A stretch of DNA of 25,299 nt, from positions 1 to 25,299 of IMG/VR virus record IMGVR_UViG_3300031519_003155; one strand, 5' to 3'. The notes beneath the pieces are model-generated. The model was not told the origin of the DNA. It did no database searches and was given only the letters and a program-made list of their open reading frames with translations. A program made the translations under genes and the position numbers. Shown piece by piece: positions 4,619-22,919 of the stretch; within the stretch, counting starts at the first letter, position 1, and every line of letters starts with the position of its first letter. Source of the DNA: a virus (lineage: Duplodnaviria; Caudoviricetes).

Positions 4619-4660
4619 TGTACTCAAAAAAAATATGTTTTAAAGTATTATTTATACATT
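4619..4660. repeat. Late promoter/leader direct repeat, copy A
   Basis: 4629-4660 (aaaaatatgttttaaagtattatttatacatt, 32 bp) is identical to 5042-5073; tgtactca is also shared. Confidence 0.95.
4649..4656 (-). promoter_or_regulatory. T4-type late promoter driving the lipoprotein-spanin cassette
   Basis: Exact TATAAATA in an intergenic region. Confidence 0.8.
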
Positions 4661-4683
4661 CAATGGCTTAGTGCCGCGATGGG

Positions 4684-5032: not shown

Positions 5033-5073
5033 TGTACTCATAAAAATATGTTTTAAAGTATTATTTATACATT
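5033..5073. repeat. Late promoter/leader direct repeat, copy B
   Basis: Matches 4619-4660. Confidence 0.95.
5062..5069 (-). promoter_or_regulatory. T4-type late promoter upstream of erpA
   Basis: Exact TATAAATA. Confidence 0.8.
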
Positions 5074-6653
5074 TATTTCGTTATTGACTCAATGAGAGGT
5101 TCGATATAGGATTCGCGGAGGCGTTCAATAAATTGCTCAGTATCCCCATGTGTGGGTAAAGTGCCCAACATGGTTTTATAGTCAGTGGGTGACATATTAC
5201 GGACTTTATCAAAGTCTGCAAATTCCTTGTAATCTCTAGCAGTATCAAATATAGACGGCTTCAGTGGGTACAGGGGTTTTTTATGATAGGTATATTTACC
5301 CAAGTCTACACATAATGCTTTCGCCTGATTGAAGGAAGTAATATCTGACCCGTCAATTTTCTCCCAATTCATGGCTTTCTGATGGTCGGGATTGTTTCCA
5401 TCGGGGAAACTATAACCATGTTTCTGATATTCCCTGTCAAACTCAGACGTATAGGAAATAATATATTTGTCCTGCAATTCTTTTGGAACAATATGTAGGG
5501 GTACAAATGTTGTTTGATCCACCGGAGATTCATCTGACAGCAACCACTTTGCATGGTGCTTAATAGATTCAACACTCTCATAGGGTAACCCCACGATGTA
5601 TCCTTGCTCTATTAATACGTCACCCTTCCAAACTTCCTTTGCCTTGTATAACATCTCCTTAATCTTATCAGGGTCACCGCCCTTACCTACAGCCCTGCCT
5701 GATGCGCGATTAAAAGTTTCAATTCCAAACCAAGTTTGCACCAGCCCCATTTGATGTAACAACTCAATCTGTTCGGGGTACTTTACAACCAAGTCTGCCC
5801 GCAAGTAACACCAGAAGTAAATATTGAATGGGAGTGAATCTACTACCTCTGCAAACATTCTAACTTTTTCGATGCTATCATTAAACGTATCATCCTGGAT
5901 TGAATATTTCTGTATGCCGAAAGTTTCATAATTATAAACTAGTGTGTCCCTAAAAGTTTGTTTTGTCTTTGTATATCCCGCAACATCTTTCATGCCTATT
6001 AACGGGAAGGAACAAAACTTACATTTAAATCTACACCCACGGGAACATTCAATCGGCATAATTTCCTGTGGTGAAAGAAAGGTGTTGGGAGTAAATATTG
6101 CCCTACTCTTTGCAAAGTCAAAACAGGTATGGGTTGCATGTGCTTTGGTATCGTGGTTGATGACCCTCGGAAAAGTTTCAGGTGCCTTTAAGTAATCGAC
6201 AAATTGAGTTTCACTATAGCCACAGAAAACATTATCAACAAGATCACCCAGGCGTTGTTCCAACTCAGGGGCTTTACTACCACCAACAATAATTTTTACA
6301 TTAGAATTTCTAGATTTTATTCTATCAGTCATCCATGACAATCTACCATTTGTTATATAGTCGCCTAGGTAAACATCATTAGTGAAGTTATTTGAGTATA
6401 CATGTTTTACTACTTTCTCCGCACCCGAACCTATAATTGTCCATGTCAGTGAAAATCCTACGAGTTTAGTATTGGGACCAATTACCGCATCAACAACCCT
6501 ACCAAATTCATATATGTTCCAATGCTCAATATAATCCAAAACAATAACACTGTAACCATGCTTACGCAATTCTTCTGCTAAAAGGTGTGGACCCAGCCCC
6601 CGTACTTTGGTAGTTGGGATTGCCGAACTGTTTATTAGGACAACATCATACAT
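5073..6653 (-). CDS. Cobalamin-binding-domain radical SAM protein
   Basis: SRGCRFKCKFC (CX3CX2C), DDTF and GIET motifs; N-terminal GLGPHLLAEELRKHGYSV...LVGFS...IIVGG pattern of the B12-binding domain. Confidence 0.85.
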   Translation of the reverse strand: MYDVVLINSSAIPTTKVRGLGPHLLAEELRKHGYSVIVLDYIEHWNIYEFGRVVDAVIGPNTKLVGFSLTWTIIGSGAEKVVKHVYSNNFTNDVYLGDYITNGRLSWMTDRIKSRNSNVKIIVGGSKAPELEQRLGDLVDNVFCGYSETQFVDYLKAPETFPRVINHDTKAHATHTCFDFAKSRAIFTPNTFLSPQEIMPIECSRGCRFKCKFCSFPLIGMKDVAGYTKTKQTFRDTLVYNYETFGIQKYSIQDDTFNDSIEKVRMFAEVVDSLPFNIYFWCYLRADLVVKYPEQIELLHQMGLVQTWFGIETFNRASGRAVGKGGDPDKIKEMLYKAKEVWKGDVLIEQGYIVGLPYESVESIKHHAKWLLSDESPVDQTTFVPLHIVPKELQDKYIISYTSEFDREYQKHGYSFPDGNNPDHQKAMNWEKIDGSDITSFNQAKALCVDLGKYTYHKKPLYPLKPSIFDTARDYKEFADFDKVRNMSPTDYKTMLGTLPTHGDTEQFIERLRESYIEPLIESITK

Positions 6654-8077
6654 TAAAAATTGATCTTTGCGTAATCAACACCACTACTGTTTCCCTGTTT
6701 GCCCCAAGCCCCAGATGAAGTATTATCAAATACGGGACCTGAATCCGTTTGCTTAGATTGAGTTTGTCCAGAATCACAAATGCCTTGTTGTGCCGATTCA
6801 TCGAGATCATACAATCGCATTTTACTACGGTCTACCCCAATCATAAATCGCTTATTATGTCCAACATCTGAATATCTATTCTTCAATTGCTTTACCATCA
6901 TTTGCCCCGCTTGCTCTAGTTCTTCTGTACTTATAAGAGCAAACATTATGTCAGCAGTAGCAGGCAACCCAAATGATTCTGAGGTGTCTGTAAGCTCTAC
7001 GTCACTGCTACCATAACCAGTCCGTGTAGTCTGTGTTGCAGTGACAATAGGTACGTTAAACTCCTGTGCAAGTGATCTAAGTTCTTCTGCAATACTTTTA
7101 ACTATAGTGTATGAATTAACATTGCTACCGCCCTTGAAACGAGAGCTCGCACAAATATTTAGATAATCAATAAAGATAATATCGGGAACAATGTTGCGTT
7201 TCAATTTCAGTTCGCCTAGCAATGTCTTAAAATGTCCTGCATGTGCTGAGGCTGTAGGGTATTCCTTAATAATAAGTTTGCCGGTTATTTTACTGTTTAT
7301 TTTATCAATCCTATCAGTGAACATTTTCTTACTCAGGTCACCCAACTCCTGAATAGCAACATTCATCATATTTGCATCTATCCGTTCAGCAATGCGCTCC
7401 TCTGCCATTTCACAAGTAATATATAATACATTCTTACCTTGTGTGATAGCACCCGCCGCCATGTGACACATGAAGAGGGACTTACCAACACCAGTGCCAG
7501 CAAGTGCAACATTCAATGTTTTGTTAGACAATCCACCCTGTGTAATGCGATTAAAGTAATCGAGATCAAACGGAACCTTTTCTTCAAGTCGATGATAAAA
7601 TTCATAACGTTCAGTTGCGTTCTCAATATAATCATGTCCAATACTATTGTCGAATCCAACTGACAATGCATCTGATAATATGCTAGGCAACGAATCCTTA
7701 CTTAATTCACTATCCGACCCATCAATAATAGATATTGACTGCATAATAGCATTGTACACTGCCCTGTCCTTACAAAACTTTTCTGTCTCATCTACTAACC
7801 ATTGCTTATCAGTTTTCTCATCCACTTGGAGACTGTTAATAACGGATTCACATTTTAGATATAAATCCTCTGAAACCGTACGATCATCCTGCAGTCCAAT
7901 AAGTAATGCACCCTTATTAGGAGGTCCATTATACTTGTCAACAAACTCCTTAATACCCAAAAAGATCTTACGATCTTCAGGGTCTGAAAAATATTCTTCT
8001 TTCAGAAAAGGAATAGTCTTTCGTACATATTCGTCATCATTAATTAGATTCGATAAAATTTGTGTCTCTATTCTCAT
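6653..8077 (-). CDS. gp41: Replicative DnaB-like helicase (T4 gp41)
   Basis: Walker A AGTGVGKS; IIKEYPT, IFIDYLNI, TSESFGLPATAD and KQLKNRY motifs. Confidence 0.97.
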   Translation of the reverse strand: MRIETQILSNLINDDEYVRKTIPFLKEEYFSDPEDRKIFLGIKEFVDKYNGPPNKGALLIGLQDDRTVSEDLYLKCESVINSLQVDEKTDKQWLVDETEKFCKDRAVYNAIMQSISIIDGSDSELSKDSLPSILSDALSVGFDNSIGHDYIENATERYEFYHRLEEKVPFDLDYFNRITQGGLSNKTLNVALAGTGVGKSLFMCHMAAGAITQGKNVLYITCEMAEERIAERIDANMMNVAIQELGDLSKKMFTDRIDKINSKITGKLIIKEYPTASAHAGHFKTLLGELKLKRNIVPDIIFIDYLNICASSRFKGGSNVNSYTIVKSIAEELRSLAQEFNVPIVTATQTTRTGYGSSDVELTDTSESFGLPATADIMFALISTEELEQAGQMMVKQLKNRYSDVGHNKRFMIGVDRSKMRLYDLDESAQQGICDSGQTQSKQTDSGPVFDNTSSGAWGKQGNSSGVDYAKINF

Positions 8078-14127: not shown

Positions 14128-14156
14128 AAAAAAGTAGGGGGATGTAGCATCCCCCT
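14128..14156 (-). terminator. Intrinsic terminator after hsp20
   Basis: AGGGGGAUG-CUA-CAUCCCCCU followed by ACUUUUUU. Confidence 0.85.
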
Positions 14157-17978: not shown

Positions 17979-18311
17979 TTAGCCAGGATAATCTTCAGCC
18001 CAACCCCGCCACCAATGGGATGACATCGCAGTTTCAACATCACTCCATCCAGTGACAGCCTCTTCTGACGCTTTCCAGTCTGCGCGTGATTGCTCAGTAG
18101 GGAATGCAATAGTTAGCACTCGTTGCAACCCATTTTCCGATACATTGTTTTGCAACACAATATCTTCAAGGCCCTCTAACGCAGGGCTGTTAGCGAATGC
18201 ATCAAGTCTAGTACCAAAATTCAATTGAAAGTCAATAACGGCCTGGATGCTATCCCCTGGCCAAGCGTCAGATGCACTCGCTCGGTCAACTACAAGTTTA
18301 AAAGTAAACAT
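17979..18311 (-). CDS. Hypothetical acidic protein (110 aa), probably late-expressed
   Basis: GGAG-containing RBS; own TATAAATA promoter at 18343-18350. Confidence 0.7.
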   Translation of the reverse strand: MFTFKLVVDRASASDAWPGDSIQAVIDFQLNFGTRLDAFANSPALEGLEDIVLQNNVSENGLQRVLTIAFPTEQSRADWKASEEAVTGWSDVETAMSSHWWRGWAEDYPG

Positions 18312-18342
18312 TTCTCTCTCCAGTAAATTTTATATTTCTAAC

Positions 18343-18350
18343 TATTTATA
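18343..18350 (-). promoter_or_regulatory. T4-type late promoter
   Basis: Exact TATAAATA directly after the terminator U-tract. Confidence 0.75.
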
Positions 18351-18352
18351 AT

Positions 18353-18408
18353 AAAAAGGGGGCTAGGTCGCACTTGTGAGGAGAGATTGTATTTCCAACC
18401 TAGCCCCC
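18353..18408 (-). terminator. Large-loop intrinsic terminator of the cobS operon with an anti-RBS loop (possible cis-regulatory RNA or sRNA)
   Basis: 13-bp stem GGGGGCUAGGUUG / CGACCUAGCCCCC, 25-nt loop and UUUUU tail; the loop contains UCUCCUCACAAGU. Confidence 0.8.
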
Positions 18409-18415
18409 ATAAACT

Positions 18416-18763
18416 TTAACTAACTTTTTGTGCCTCACGCCTATCATGCTCGTACAATGCGAGAAATCCGTAGTGGATAATCTTGACAATATCTTTCCTG
18501 TGGTCTGAGGGTTGACCCTTCTTACCATATCGTCCATTGTACTTGTCAACATTGCCAAGAAAGAAACCAATACCATGACCACGATCAACGATTACCTCGC
18601 TCGACTGTAATCCACCCTGTCCATAATGACCACCATAAGTATGATCAATATACTTTGTGAACTCAGCAATCAGTTCGTCTTCTCTAAATTTATAATCTAT
18701 AGTCATCTCAGACTCATCCTTTGATCTCATCTTCGTCAGGCTCTCTTGGACAATAGTAGTCAT
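18416..18763 (-). CDS. DUF3310-like protein (family related to T7 gp1.7 nucleotide kinase)
   Basis: TYGGHY...GFFLGNVDKYNGRYGKKG...DIVKIIHY pattern; TAATG-coupled to cobS. Confidence 0.7.
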   Translation of the reverse strand: MTTIVQESLTKMRSKDESEMTIDYKFREDELIAEFTKYIDHTYGGHYGQGGLQSSEVIVDRGHGIGFFLGNVDKYNGRYGKKGQPSDHRKDIVKIIHYGFLALYEHDRREAQKVS

Positions 18764-19926
18764 TATGAATAGTCCTCATCAATGACGAGATTTGTATGTT
18801 CAACATTAACCTCTTCGGTTAAGTCTGCATCACCAGTAGTACCATCTACCTTATTGTAAAGCTCTAAGAAGGCGCCCCGTGTGTCAGTATCGAAACGATT
18901 AATACATAAGGTAATTGCCTTTACTCGGTCATTAAACATGGCATAAGCATTAACAATGTGTTCTAAGCGGCGCGTACTAACTAGTTCTTCGATAGCACCC
19001 TCATAGAAAGTCTTGCGGATAATATCCGCCCATGTAACAAGTTTATCAGCAAAGTCCTCATCGACCTTACCTACCTTATCCATCTTACCCATAATGATAC
19101 GTTTCTCAACTGCCATTGATGGGTATTCCTGCTCTACAGTAATTGCAAATCTTTCTAAAAATGCCTCATCTAAAATCTGTGCCGACATAAACTTGCCGTC
19201 ATCTGATCCGCGACCCTTTGTATTAGCCGTTGCGATAATGTTAAACCCTGGAGCAGGTGTAATAACTTCACCTGTCTTTTTATTGAAGTAGGGTTTACCC
19301 TCTAGGATAGCCTGTAAGCACATTAGCTTGTTAGAGCCACGATCGATCTCATCAAGGATGAGTACTGCGCCGCGTTTCATTGCAGTAAGGACAGGACCCT
19401 CACGGTAAACCACGTTACCATCAACTAGCGTATTACCGCCAATCAAATCATCCTCATCAGTCTCAATTGAAATATTGACTCGGATTGCCTCACGCTTTAA
19501 TTTCGCACAAGTCTGCTCAACCATAGTGGTCTTGCCATTACCTGACAGACCAGAAATAAATGTAGTGTAAAAAATACCAGACTTTAAGATCTGAGTAATA
19601 TCTTTACTGAAACCAAACGGAATGTAAGTGGGATCCTTTGCAGGGACTAAGTTGTCAACCTCAACAATCATCTTAGCCTGAGTAACCACTTTAGCCACCG
19701 GAGCAAGTACTGGTTCAGGTAACTTAATAGGTGCAGTCATTGGGATGACAACTCCCTGCATATCTATTGAATACTGATTGCGCCCAATTTTGTTCTCGTC
19801 AAAGAACCATTTAGGTGCCGACAGTCCAGCAGACTTGGCAATGTCTAAAATTTGAACTCTAGTAAAAACACCAGAGCCATTGTCAACCTGACTAAGCGCA
19901 TTTAAAAGCATATTTCTATCTGACAT
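18763..19926 (-). CDS. cobS: CobS/MoxR-like AAA+ ATPase (start revised to MSDRN)
   Basis: GLSGNGKT, LILDEID, ATANTKG, LDEAFLERF and STRRL; GAGGAG RBS before the ATG at 19926. Confidence 0.92.
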   Translation of the reverse strand: MSDRNMLLNALSQVDNGSGVFTRVQILDIAKSAGLSAPKWFFDENKIGRNQYSIDMQGVVIPMTAPIKLPEPVLAPVAKVVTQAKMIVEVDNLVPAKDPTYIPFGFSKDITQILKSGIFYTTFISGLSGNGKTTMVEQTCAKLKREAIRVNISIETDEDDLIGGNTLVDGNVVYREGPVLTAMKRGAVLILDEIDRGSNKLMCLQAILEGKPYFNKKTGEVITPAPGFNIIATANTKGRGSDDGKFMSAQILDEAFLERFAITVEQEYPSMAVEKRIIMGKMDKVGKVDEDFADKLVTWADIIRKTFYEGAIEELVSTRRLEHIVNAYAMFNDRVKAITLCINRFDTDTRGAFLELYNKVDGTTGDADLTEEVNVEHTNLVIDEDYS

Positions 19927-19977
19927 AATATATCTCCTCACAAGTAAATAATGTCTATTTTTTCATTCTATACAAGT

Positions 19978-20006
19978 ATTATACGTTATATTACCACCAA
20001 AGTCAA
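19978..20006 (-). promoter_or_regulatory. Sigma70-type promoter for cobS, copy 6
   Basis: TTGACT (20006-20001), 17 bp, TATAAT (19983-19978). Confidence 0.9.
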
Positions 20007-20055
20007 GCACTTTAACACCAAATAATGAAGTCTTTTCCTCAATGTTTTCAACAAC

Positions 20056-22245
20056 TTACGCTACCTTGTCGATAAATCTGTTCAAAAACACCTTTGAGGT
20101 GCTCTTTTTATTCTGATATTTGCGGAATCCTCGCAATAAATCACCTTTTGCCTGGGATTTTACCTCAAACTCGTTCTCGTCTACTGCTAAATTGTCACCA
20201 TCCTGTATTGCGTAAAATACATCAAACTGTTTAAAGTTCTCAATTTCAAAAAACTTGTTAGCAGTCCATTCCTTTTTGTACTTAGTATCAAAGTCTTCGG
20301 TTGATTCCGATACATACAAATAATTCTGTAAATCCCTTTTCTTAAAGTTTCCAATGTGAAAGTTGATAAGGTTAGTATCGACAGTTGCTTTAAGATGCTT
20401 TAGTAATCCACGAAACCAAAGGTCAGGGGATCTCGGCTGGAATGTAGGGTTCGTAATAACCACAGTACTGATTGAACCCTCAGTGATAACTAACTTTTCC
20501 ACATTACGTAGCGGCCCAGGAGAACCGACAATTGCCAAGTTACCTGTTGCATCACCATCAGTCAGAAATATGGTGTTCATAATTTCAACATTATGCTGTA
20601 ATCTAAATTCTTTGATCAAGTCACGCGCAACTAAAACACATTCTGCAAGGGGAGTCGCACCCATTTGCAAATGTCTAGGCAGTTGGCTACGCATTGCGTA
20701 AATACCATTATTATGGTTTTTGAAAGCCGCCGCAAATGTTAGCAACTTACGAAAAACTGTTTTATATTGGGTTGCACCGAGTGAAGATGAGATTAAGTGA
20801 AGCATCTGGAAATCATCATCTTTTATTACAATCTTACCATCTGTCAATCCATTGTTTAACATCCCAATTCCAATATCGTAATCTTCCTGATTTATTTGGC
20901 TGTTGCCTGAGTTGGTGAATGAATAAACATCAAACGGTATATTGACCTTCTTACAAAAACTAATTTGAATCAGCAATTGCTCAATGGTAGAAGCCATATT
21001 TTGATACATTGAACCCGAAAAGTCAACAAACATAAGCATACCGTGATTCTTGCCGTTCGGCACAACCGTATTTGAAAGGAACACATCTTCAGTTAACTTA
21101 GTAGCCCAAAGTTTATCAACATTCAACTTTCCAGTTTTATTTTGACGAGCCTTAGCAAACTCAGTCGCCGTGCGGCGCATCTCGAATTGCTGAACTAATG
21201 AATTAATATATGTAGTGTTTTTTCGATTGAAATCAGAATACATCCTATCAGCAACCTCGGTGGTTGCAAACTCGTCAGATGTGCCTGAGACTCTAAAGAC
21301 TCCTTCGAAGTCAGTATCCCAAGTATTTTTAATATCCAGTATAACTTTTTTGAGATTAATCTTTGGAAACGCACCATAGACAATATTACCGGCTTGTTCA
21401 TTTAACAACCTGCTCTCATTTGAACGAAAAGCCTCATCAGTGAATGATTTGGGTTCTTGCTTTTCATCGGAATCGGTTGAATTACTACCAGCATCATCAG
21501 TAGGTGTTGAATCCTGCTCTTCATCCTCATCCGAATCACCTGAACTGGATCCCTCAGATGCATCTTCTGATTCCTCAGTTTCACCATCATTGTCACCCTC
21601 AGACGGCGCCATATCATCTTCCTCACCTTCTGTCATATCATCAGGGTCATACTCAGATGATTGCAAGTCATCAAACATATCCTGCATTTCGGTTTCATCT
21701 TCTGAGTAAGCATAGAGGTCATTTGCAATCAACTCAACATCTTGCCAAGTCTTAGCGGCATCTATACGTGTAATATAATCTTGTTCTGCATCAGAAAAAG
21801 TAACACCGAGCATATTGCCAATCTTGTAGTGAAGATTGATTCGGTCGATTAAGGGGAGGGTAGCAACATCTTTATCCGCTACACCGAAGAAGTCTTCAGC
21901 AAACAGTTTTTGATAACCCTTGTAGAAATTTTTGACTAAGCCAGGAAACTTCTCCTTTATTTTGCGCTCAATACGTGCATCCTCAATAACATTAAGGAAT
22001 GACTTGAATCCCTGGCTTTTGTTAGTAACTTGATCGTGCCAGCCTTCTAATGGAGTAAACAATGCGTGACCAACCTCGTGACCAATAAGCAGGTCATATA
22101 GATCATTGTCCATTGACTTCCATATGGGTAATACAATCTTACGAGATTTCAAATCAAAATGGGCTGTAGGGACTTTTTGGTGCTCAACTGATATATTCTC
22201 AGCCGCAAGCAACTTAGCTAGAGTACTTTTCCCCGTAATATCCAT
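20056..22245 (-). CDS. Metallopeptidase-like plus VWA domain protein (CobT-like partner of CobS); start revised to MDITGK
   Basis: HEVGH (HExxH) and NVIEDARIE in the N-domain; long D/E/S-rich linker; MIDAS DFSGS...GATP...FLTDG; AAGGTG RBS. Confidence 0.88.
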   Translation of the reverse strand: MDITGKSTLAKLLAAENISVEHQKVPTAHFDLKSRKIVLPIWKSMDNDLYDLLIGHEVGHALFTPLEGWHDQVTNKSQGFKSFLNVIEDARIERKIKEKFPGLVKNFYKGYQKLFAEDFFGVADKDVATLPLIDRINLHYKIGNMLGVTFSDAEQDYITRIDAAKTWQDVELIANDLYAYSEDETEMQDMFDDLQSSEYDPDDMTEGEEDDMAPSEGDNDGETEESEDASEGSSSGDSDEDEEQDSTPTDDAGSNSTDSDEKQEPKSFTDEAFRSNESRLLNEQAGNIVYGAFPKINLKKVILDIKNTWDTDFEGVFRVSGTSDEFATTEVADRMYSDFNRKNTTYINSLVQQFEMRRTATEFAKARQNKTGKLNVDKLWATKLTEDVFLSNTVVPNGKNHGMLMFVDFSGSMYQNMASTIEQLLIQISFCKKVNIPFDVYSFTNSGNSQINQEDYDIGIGMLNNGLTDGKIVIKDDDFQMLHLISSSLGATQYKTVFRKLLTFAAAFKNHNNGIYAMRSQLPRHLQMGATPLAECVLVARDLIKEFRLQHNVEIMNTIFLTDGDATGNLAIVGSPGPLRNVEKLVITEGSISTVVITNPTFQPRSPDLWFRGLLKHLKATVDTNLINFHIGNFKKRDLQNYLYVSESTEDFDTKYKKEWTANKFFEIENFKQFDVFYAIQDGDNLAVDENEFEVKSQAKGDLLRGFRKYQNKKSTSKVFLNRFIDKVA

Positions 22246-22278
22246 GCATTTCACCTTGTTTTTTCAGTTTATACATGT

Positions 22279-22307
22279 ATTATACGCTCTAGCCAAGTCA
22301 AAGTCAA
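22279..22307 (-). promoter_or_regulatory. Sigma70-type promoter for the peptidase-VWA gene, copy 7
   Basis: TTGACT (22307-22302), 17 bp, TATAAT (22284-22279). Confidence 0.9.
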
Positions 22308-22310
22308 GCA

Positions 22311-22919
22311 CTATTTCGCTTTATTTGGGCTCTTTTTGCGTTTTTTCGGTGATATAGGTGCTTGATTTACTTCCTCTTTTTTATTTTTAAGCCTCTCTAA
22401 GACCTCATCTGCCTCCATCCAGTGATCTCGACCGTCTAAAATCGCCAAAATCTCCACTTCTGTGAGGAATCCATCGTATATTTGACGTACCAAATTTGCA
22501 CCCCAAGATGCTTCTAATTTGACTTGAGCTTGCATCTCACTTGATTTACCATATGAGAATGAGGAAAAGGTATGAAACATAAACATGGAGTGATCTGAGA
22601 TCTCACATTGGTCACCACACAAGAACAACATAGTAGCCGCAGATGCAACTAACCCCTCAGCAGATGAAATAACTTTTGCTTCAGATTCGTTTAGGGCTCG
22701 CATAAGTTGAATTGTCGTCATTACATCACCACCCTCAGAATTGAGGTGCAAATAAATCACATCCATTGGACCCGCTGACCGTATAGTCTGAATCCATTCA
22801 GAATAGTCTTGTGGTTGCCCTATTTCACCTGATACATAAAAATGATGTATATAGCCTAGAGGTTGTTGTATGTAACCCGAAGACATAGTTGTTACTTCTT
22901 CATTATTAGAGTTGCTCAT
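22311..22919 (-). CDS. clpP: ClpP-like serine protease (peptidase S14)
   Basis: LNSEGGDV, VASAAT (Ser), FMFH (His) and RDHWM (Asp) triad pattern. Confidence 0.85.
   Translation of the reverse strand: MSNSNNEEVTTMSSGYIQQPLGYIHHFYVSGEIGQPQDYSEWIQTIRSAGPMDVIYLHLNSEGGDVMTTIQLMRALNESEAKVISSAEGLVASAATMLFLCGDQCEISDHSMFMFHTFSSFSYGKSSEMQAQVKLEASWGANLVRQIYDGFLTEVEILAILDGRDHWMEADEVLERLKNKKEEVNQAPISPKKRKKSPNKAK

Follow-up and report, generated by a model that had tools for sequence, protein, structure and literature searches.

A terminator-like hairpin in T4-like phages whose loop co-varies with the 'cobS' (MoxR-type ATPase) ribosome-binding site of its own operon

The 'cobS' operon of an uncultured T4-like phage (IMG/VR record IMGVR_UViG_3300031519_003155) ends in a terminator-like hairpin with an unusually large loop. 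The whole 25.3-kb contig (25,299 nucleotides) was analysed and is called the window here. We find that the loop co-varies among related phages with the ribosome-binding site of its own operon's first gene, which encodes a MoxR-type ATPase, and that this match is not due to chance. The element is a real, conserved antisense hairpin that tracks its target, and it is likely to be a 3'-end regulatory RNA that would work like CarZ and OppZ of Vibrio cholerae. The evidence consists of structure prediction, conservation, complementarity and co-variation, from which we infer transcription, release, pairing and repression. The features of the operon are as follows.

19978 to 20006, minus strand: sigma70-type cobS promoter, TTGACT-17-TATAAT, RNA start predicted near 19971
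19922 to 19946, minus strand: cobS translation-initiation region, with Shine-Dalgarno (SD) sequence GAGGAG at 19939-19934 and ATG at 19926-19924; opening cost about 3.2 kcal/mol
18763 to 19926, minus strand: 'cobS', MoxR-type AAA+ ATPase of 387 amino acids (aa) (Pfam AAA_5, E=5e-17, CbbQ_C weak; PHROG 249, E=9e-107)
18416 to 18763, minus strand: DUF3310 gene, the last before the hairpin (Pfam PF11753, E=7e-07)
18409 to 18415, minus strand: 5' foot AGUUUAU, predicted to be single-stranded; candidate word for RNase E-like cleavage
18396 to 18408, minus strand: 5' stem strand (sequence and folding)
18371 to 18395, minus strand: antisense segment, a 25-nt open CU-rich loop (sequence and folding)
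18358 to 18370, minus strand: 3' stem strand (sequence and folding)
18350 to 18357, minus strand: U-rich terminator-like tail, 7 U in 8 nt, with U5 at 18357-18353
18343 to 18350, minus strand: T4-type late promoter TATAAATA of the next gene (from sequence; consensus as in section 29 of PMC3014915)
17979 to 18321, minus strand: unnamed 110-aa late gene downstream of the hairpin, with its own SD at 18321-18315

The predicted cobS transcript runs for about 1,620 nt, from near 19971 to the U tail, and its translation starts at the ATG at 19926, not at the GTG at 19941. The hairpin begins 7 nt after the DUF3310 stop, on the same strand as cobS and 1.5 kb downstream of its target. Its 13-bp stem contains 9 G-C pairs and 1 G-U pair, the loop is predicted to be fully open, and the fold of −26.2 kcal/mol (z=−4.3) was not equalled in stability by any of 200 shuffled sequences. 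The GC-rich stem and U tract are those of an intrinsic terminator; the 25-nt loop compares with 3-8 nt in the definition used by our terminator scan, which did not list the hairpin. Loop positions 18384-18372 are the exact 13-nt complement of 19945-19933 in the cobS ribosome-binding site, and a G-U pair between U19946 and G18371 makes a 14-bp helix of −23.2 kcal/mol. The entire loop reaches −24.1 kcal/mol against the cobS start region. A repeat search extended the match imperfectly to 24 nt at 83%, over the AUG, at a gain of only about 1 kcal/mol. An earlier note on this DNA, made from the letters alone, had reported the stem, the loop, the U5 tail and the exact match with its adjacent G-U pair, and all of these, coordinates included, were confirmed on the sequence. 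The late promoter directly behind the U tail had been overlooked.

The specificity of this match was assessed within the window. The loop holds the sole exact 13-mer complement to any of the 42 same-strand start regions, and cobS was the best of the 42, with the runner-up at −14.8 kcal/mol; the metallopeptidase-VWA gene upstream of cobS ranked 25th (−7.9 kcal/mol). Conversely, the loop was the best of 25,274 windows of 25 nt against the cobS start region, but a coding window at 6954 reached −23.5 kcal/mol, so that duplex energy by itself is not unique; this stretch, 6930-6954, is a case of strong yet chance-level complementarity. When the anti-SD hexamer was held fixed and the loop flanks were shuffled, 88 of 20,000 shuffles matched the observed energy. 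The loop stays open when the full transcript is folded with nested pairs only, and 5'-3' pairing over the SD would form a pseudoknot. In the window, the loop is specialised for cobS. A 10-nt match to the loop within the VWA coding sequence, at 22139, was taken as chance.

The earlier note had proposed beforehand that loop and ribosome-binding site be compared across related phages. For this we used an own-versus-foreign test, in which duplex energies are calculated for all combinations of loop and start region (−35 to +20), row and column means are removed and the diagonal is permuted; each hand-defined lineage was represented by one member, and the permutation makes no correction for shared descent. 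Loops were predicted to pair better with their own cobS than with foreign ones (−4.3 kcal/mol; 13 lineages, median p=0.0005), and by −3.7 kcal/mol when the window was removed (p=0.0005). A set of 11 lineages gave −4.1 (median p=0.001), or −3.4 without the window (p=0.0005). The window's clade without the window itself gave −3.0 (5 lineages, p=0.008, the lowest p possible), and seven lineages that share a GA-repeat in their early leaders gave −1.8 (median p=0.013, maximum 0.09). The signal was −1.5 for VWA (p=0.028) and absent for the sliding clamp, used as a control (+0.1, p=0.60).

The fit itself differs by lineage. In the window the loop follows the SD and its 5' flank, in L007 the SD and the coding start, and in L004 the 5' leader, while in L175 and L469 ten exact letters match between the loop and its own leader. 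Most relatives have an imperfect match of 8-12 nt, and the window is among the strongest cases. With the core held fixed, the loops of 21 of 30 homologues did better than flank-shuffled versions at p=0.05. Start regions were also ranked on 13 contigs with a crude ORF caller, and cobS ranked between first and sixth on all 13: 1/42, 3/227, 6/176, 5/61, 2/25, 1/115, 3/192, 2/55, 2/41, 2/91 and 3/73 on eleven, and 2/227 and 1/64 on two contigs fetched after the hypothesis had been set. In G012 a mis-called early gene at −24.5 would make cobS third.

Conservation of the hairpin was examined in three overlapping searches of 80 loci each, leaving out the window's own contig (L126). Among 107 distinct CobS proteins, 40 were accompanied by the intergenic hairpin, 16 by a copy within a coding sequence and 46 by neither, and 5 were too short; presence is clustered on the tree. 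Homologous stems of 10-20 bp are wholly different between lineages yet still paired, with compensatory changes within lineages (for example L450/L452, L004/L005/L016 and L023/L026/L029). At least 12 of the 14 loop-adjacent positions pair in 26 of 28 homologues, and in the remaining two after a bulge; 53 of 504 stem pairs are G-U. The loops are 19-32 nt long, pyrimidine-rich and predicted open, and are fitted to their own cobS leader. Only the CUC within a CU run is invariant among them. The hairpin usually lies 4-36 nt past the DUF3310 stop, in lineage K 1.1 kb further on, with at least 5 U in the 8-nt tail in 25 of 31 homologues and TATAAATA behind it in nearly all. Gene order was never inverted at the loci examined.

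Searches for further copies were less informative. MAFFT failed to align the stems across lineages, and our model R1 was therefore built without base pairs. It gave 9 matches in 67 sources, one per contig and all at the known place, and it missed the copies in the window and in G012; its lack of matches in hairpin-less relatives is thus weak evidence of absence. A direct large-loop scan, which missed the known copy in G001, found no second copy in G002, G003 or G012 and no CU-repeat loop in G005 or G011. Loose pattern scans of viral contigs (10 and 17 of 64 parts) placed 6 of 238 loci in a cobS region, all of already-known lineages, and ten other GC-rich hairpins from these scans had no homologue of the five region proteins nearby. 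No viral locus was retrieved with VWA as the query, two hairpins compared with cultured phages by blastn yielded short chance matches only, and Rfam 15 gave no match in the window and only two sub-threshold chance matches in 8 homologous loci. The cobS-bearing phages HTVC008M and P-SSM2 had no such hairpin nearby and no long CU repeat. Two kinds of structure were seen in passing. A small extra GC-rich hairpin adjoins the main stem on its 5' side in GA-repeat lineages (L023-L078, L175, L447, L457-L469) and is absent in the window's clade. Other large-loop, pyrimidine-rich hairpins occur in L530 near 5187 (minus strand; in the hairpin-less relative G011) and, with a terminator-like build, in L301, an unrelated viral contig.

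In a sister clade (tree support 92), a GT2 glycosyltransferase gene follows DUF3310 and holds the loop sequence about 25-35 codons into its frame (L035:4700-4790; homologues in L033, L036, L037, L040, L041, L047, L048, L051, L052 and L058). This coding copy shares 20 identical letters with the intergenic loop of L015, has a stem of 7-9 bp and no U tail, and is read as a conserved NSNSSPHER-like peptide. L038, L042 and L045 have the coding copy as well. Over 11 genes, its synonymous identity is 0.85 (13 codons); the value elsewhere is 0.53, and none of 200 other windows exceeds 0.68. In this clade cobS still ranks 3/192 and 2/41. The antisense segment is here kept without a terminator, which a timer set by the 3' end does not predict. 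A small conserved hairpin also lies near the start of this GT2 gene.

The foot of the hairpin carries a conserved word. In 10 of 13 lineages, as judged by eye, RGUU immediately precedes the first stem on its 5' side, against 126 of 1,386 stop-codon flanks, and the word is present also where the hairpin lies 1.1 kb from DUF3310. The RNase E core motif RNWUU (PMC5222698, in its available part) was seen by eye at the foot in 8 of 13 lineages, although it is a low-information word. The conserved word is suggestive of an RNase E-like release. Scattered contigs of the window's phage were present in two metatranscriptome runs of one sample. One 158-nt contig, found in both runs at a depth of 2-3, spans 18252-18407, that is, hairpin, U tail and next gene. 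It shows neither ends nor strand and may be one molecule or DNA, and was not counted as support; if RNA, it indicates read-through.

Other genes were also candidates for pairing. Promoter-proximal genes were compared with start regions of like SD strength on the same contig, and at equal SD strength cobS fell in the top tenth in 10 of 12 cases and VWA in 9 of 11. Small distant genes of this kind (at most 150 aa) were in the top tenth in 15 of 38 cases (median percentile 0.15, Wilcoxon p=5e-4), and gave −1.2 in the own-loop test (p=0.023); larger distant ones were never so (0/24). In G002, G003 and G012, several of the matching small genes are separated from the hairpin by tens of kb, and at such a distance could be reached only in trans. 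cobS is the one target common to all lineages, with VWA, whose start region also matches the loop in many relatives, second-best, and the targets lie 25-50 nt from predicted mRNA 5' ends, in this respect like the target of RNA-OUT (PMC4737173). The loop has only weak matches (−5.9 to −12.0) to the four remaining early-promoter copies of the window, so that the window sequence itself needs no trans mode.

We propose that the hairpin is set free at the mRNA 3' end as a stable RNA about 60 nt long, which would pair in trans with the cobS site and block translation; we give this reading a probability of about 0.5. Repression of cobS by pairing in one form or the other, in trans or within the same mRNA, is on the sequence evidence rather probable. 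Host RNA polymerase would read VWA, cobS and DUF3310 from sigma70-type promoters, and the RNA would end at, or be trimmed to, the GC-rich stem. A cut at the single-stranded foot, suggested by the conserved word only, would free the hairpin. The stem would keep the 19-32-nt loop open to pair with start regions 25-50 nt from a free mRNA 5' end, and the accumulating RNA would exert delayed negative feedback on the MoxR-VWA pair. In lineages with the shared GA-repeat in early leaders, this feedback may extend to other small early genes. A more far-reaching version, in which a small RNA from the 3' end of the MoxR-VWA operon of marine T4-like phages acts as a clock for immediate-early shut-off, its loop refitted in each lineage to early leaders genome-wide, is tentative and in our view somewhat unlikely.

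Several observations weigh against release and action in trans, or against its generality. The cobS test was null among four GA-repeat lineages (−0.4, p=0.33), and the lineages, being hand-defined, are not independent. The 150-aa cut was chosen after an earlier result was known, and the distant-gene matches may be a by-product of selection on cobS, the early leaders of one genome being alike; the weak matches in the window have been given above. RGUU is a short word, and the sole RNA data are the low-depth contigs of one sample. In the marine phage Melnitz, which has a similar-looking hairpin and no cobS, loop targets were not enriched (2/21, p=0.29). The 46 of 107 relatives without the element within about 3-4 kb of cobS include HTVC008M and P-SSM2; regulation there is dispensable or achieved otherwise. 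Finally, L488 has a leader nearly that of the window, yet no hairpin, and its 41 kb contain no CTCCTCAC on the coding strand. The leader is therefore likely to be the older part, to which loops were fitted afterwards.

The earlier note had favoured a fold-back timer, in which completion of the 3' end lets the loop bind the leader of its own mRNA molecule, so that cobS is translated only while the message is nascent. Its core, a loop selected to pair with the cobS ribosome-binding site, is supported here, but action in cis is not favoured over the trans alternative that the same note had offered. All co-variation results fit cis and trans equally, cobS lies in the same predicted transcript as the hairpin, VWA may share that transcript, since no terminator is predicted before cobS, and 25 of 31 homologues have a U-rich tail. 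In either mode, a duplex between a loop and linear RNA that exceeds one turn requires a free end close by, and contact between loop and leader in cis is a pseudoknot. Long-distance 5'-3' sequestration of an SD is known for hok and aapA (PMC6733600, in part), but in mRNAs of about 225 nt with nested helices, whereas here it would span 1.5 kb of translated RNA and pass through a closed loop. The GT2 coding copy neither lies at a 3' end nor is a terminator, and the distant early-gene matches and the conserved 5' foot are given no role by a timer. Because of the coding copy, the matches to VWA and distant early genes, and the foot, the trans model fits better, and we regard the timer as doubtful. 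A further part of the note, silencing of DUF3310 through coupling, is unsupported: the TAATG overlap at 18763 is real, but the gene has its own SD-like words before two possible starts, and several relatives, such as L007, have no stop-start coupling.

A different target would be the gene downstream. As for e and soc of T4 (PMC3014915, section 29), the loop could silence the late gene's leader in early read-through RNA until the late promoter takes over and omits the hairpin. The position of TATAAATA in nearly all homologues suits this, as do a 7-bp match to the downstream SD in the window (−13.5, rank 5/42), an own-loop signal of −1.6 over 13 lineages (p=0.003), a strong duplex in lineage J (about −20) and the RNA-library contig that bridges hairpin and next gene. 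The window's clade has no such signal, however (+0.07, p=0.53), the duplex is only −4 to −8 in L001, L020, L175, L447, L457 and L469, L020 keeps the hairpin despite a different next gene and no late promoter, and relatives such as L488 and L193 lack the hairpin although a late promoter and a small gene of similar appearance directly follow DUF3310. We consider such gating very unlikely as the main function; it may be a second role in GA-repeat lineages. In these (L023, L026, L029, L059, L063-L078), a stretch of GA able to pair with the loop (up to about −20 kcal/mol) stands directly behind TATAAATA, at the predicted start of the late transcript and 20-25 nt upstream of the late gene's SD, and could form a local pseudoknot in read-through RNA or serve as a late-made sponge for the hairpin RNA.

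The CU-rich loop might instead be a general surface for anti-SD pairing with host mRNAs or for an RNA-binding protein such as RegA, whose gene is nearby (15152-14724), with the cobS match secondary. The small invariant core, the cuckoo RNAs with their variable stems and fixed anti-SD loop (PMC4615179, in part), and the 9 of 30 homologues that fail to beat flank shuffles at p=0.05 are in line with this. In 21 of 30 homologues and in the own-versus-foreign test, however, the loop flanks keep to letters outside the SD that are particular to the lineage's own cobS leader or coding start, which makes this reading unlikely. Least probable is a DNA-level or neutral feature, with inverted repeats around the cobS-DUF3310 cassette as a recombination scar, or a terminator of the ordinary kind whose loop is accidental. 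Arms of 24 nt do flank both genes, one coding window nearly reaches the same energy by chance, and no more than 20 of 31 homologues fold better on the sense strand. Co-variation largely refutes this. The match lies within an open loop, makes use of G-U pairing in changing registers, and covers a start region in every case. The 53 G-U stem pairs, the synonymous constraint in the coding copy and the gene order, never inverted, also contradict it.

Comparison with known systems, for which the cited papers were available in part, places the element closest to CarZ/OppZ, where an RNA from the operon 3' end is complementary to the start region of the operon's first gene and gives negative feedback without a transcription factor (PMC7398697), as proposed here. 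The hairpin likewise lies on the same strand at the operon 3' end, with conserved complementarity to a start region of its own operon. It differs in belonging to a lytic phage and in that the antisense segment is the 19-32-nt loop of the terminator-like hairpin itself, refitted in each lineage and found once inside coding sequence; RNase E release and Hfq binding are putative here. IS10 RNA-OUT is also a stable hairpin with a large open loop that blocks the ribosome-binding site at an unstructured mRNA 5' end (PMC4737173), but it is fully complementary and encoded opposite its target, whereas the present element is on the same strand, 1.5 kb away, and pairs over 8-14 bp. Cuckoo/CcsR RNAs and the C-rich loops of the Staphylococcus aureus RNAIII type share variable stems and a CU-rich anti-SD loop; the cuckoo RNAs of Alphaproteobacteria consist of 2-4 hairpins, 24-50 nt long and each with an unvarying CCUCCUCCC loop (PMC4615179), while our alignment shows one long hairpin (with a small 5' hairpin in some lineages), no CCUCCUCCC, and a loop that varies with its target. 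In hok/aapA, a 3'-end anti-SD can mask the 5' SD, as here, but in short toxin mRNAs that are silent at full length, are activated by 3' trimming and have an antisense antitoxin (PMC6733600). No toxin or antitoxin was seen in the present case, where a 387-aa AAA+ ATPase is encoded by a 1.6-kb transcript and the distance is about seven times longer. The T4 e, soc, 49 and I-TevI leaders also have RNA structure at an early/late boundary that late RNA lacks (PMC3014915). There, however, local helices hold the late gene's own SD, while here the placement of the late promoter is alike, the best co-varying match is to the upstream early gene, and sequestration of the late SD by a conserved helix is without support in the window's clade and partly supported in lineages G-J.

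The Melnitz hairpin mentioned above (EXVC044M, MZ577097 38545-38640) has a large CU-repeat loop on a stem and a terminator end, in another marine T4-like phage, of Methylophilales. Unlike the element here it has its own sigma70 promoter and a separate terminator, in a genome without cobS. Its region (L531:38510-38640) is annotated as a 59-aa hypothetical protein, its model score was not significant (E=0.34), and it is a stand-alone look-alike with no demonstrated kinship to the cobS hairpin; that a cultured phage has such a look-alike counts in favour of the trans reading. The literature searched held no description of the cobS element, though an earlier listing without annotation is possible. 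The available parts of PMC12197685, PMC9964418, PMC2864571 and PMC9004378 do not describe it, nor does the last describe the Melnitz hairpin. The text of PMC10690425 contains no cobS, MoxR or DUF3310, and six of its supplement files gave only candidates upstream of DUF3310 (two of three places shown). What this analysis adds is the own-versus-foreign co-variation with cobS, evidence that speaks against a late-gene reading in the window's clade, and the coding copy.

The remaining genes of the window give the context of the operon. Every long gene is on the minus strand, in the order NifU, peptide deformylase, Clp-like protease, peptidase-VWA, 'cobS', DUF3310, the unnamed 110-aa gene, sliding clamp, peroxiredoxin and RegA. 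The gene upstream of cobS has its own promoter, with no terminator predicted between the two, a point overlooked in the earlier note.

22279 to 22307, minus strand: sigma70-type promoter of the peptidase-VWA gene, an 11/12 consensus match and one of 5 copies of the early-promoter repeat
20056 to 22245, minus strand: metallopeptidase-VWA gene (PHROG 459, E=2e-186)

The metallopeptidase-VWA protein is likely to be the partner of the MoxR ATPase; such pairs occur in T4-like jumbo phages, and a chaperone role has been proposed for them (PMC7824862, in its available part). The product of the gene named cobS in the earlier note is a MoxR-type ATPase. A role in cobalamin synthesis was set aside, as no cob genes were found among the scanned proteins and the same source interprets the pair as a MoxR-vWA chaperone. 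Among cultured phages, Pelagibacter phage HTVC008M and cyanophages have the most similar cobS genes (about 50-64% identity), and uncultured relatives reach 79%. NifU, peptide deformylase and the Clp-protease-like gene stand in a row (24996-22311) before VWA-MoxR, with peroxiredoxin and Hsp20 further down, as a protein-handling cluster. A 56-nt early-promoter repeat in five copies, 64-93% alike (1506-1561, 2168-2223, 2784-2839, 19958-20013 and 22259-22314), is common to VWA, cobS and three small genes. At 14136-14156 an ordinary short-loop terminator hairpin overlaps the first called ATG of ORF 14150-13932; the true start is probably further downstream, where the leader resembles that of cobS. 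A late-promoter leader occurs in two 53-nt copies, 83% alike (4629-4681 and 5042-5094), before neighbouring small genes.

If the proposed mechanism is true, feedback of the CarZ type would extend to lytic phages, the widespread 'cobS' MoxR-VWA pair would presumably be needed only as a pulse, and a regulatory RNA would have shifted between an intergenic terminator and coding sequence. As an RNA the element is short and fully specified, its targets are predicted and compensatory variants of it occur naturally, and its loop-on-stem build with natural orthogonal pairs would be useful for synthetic translational repressors. Should the more tentative clock for early genes prove true, the T4 superfamily would have its first trans-acting regulatory RNA with a phage regulon, and one so needed that a clade keeps it inside a glycosyltransferase frame.

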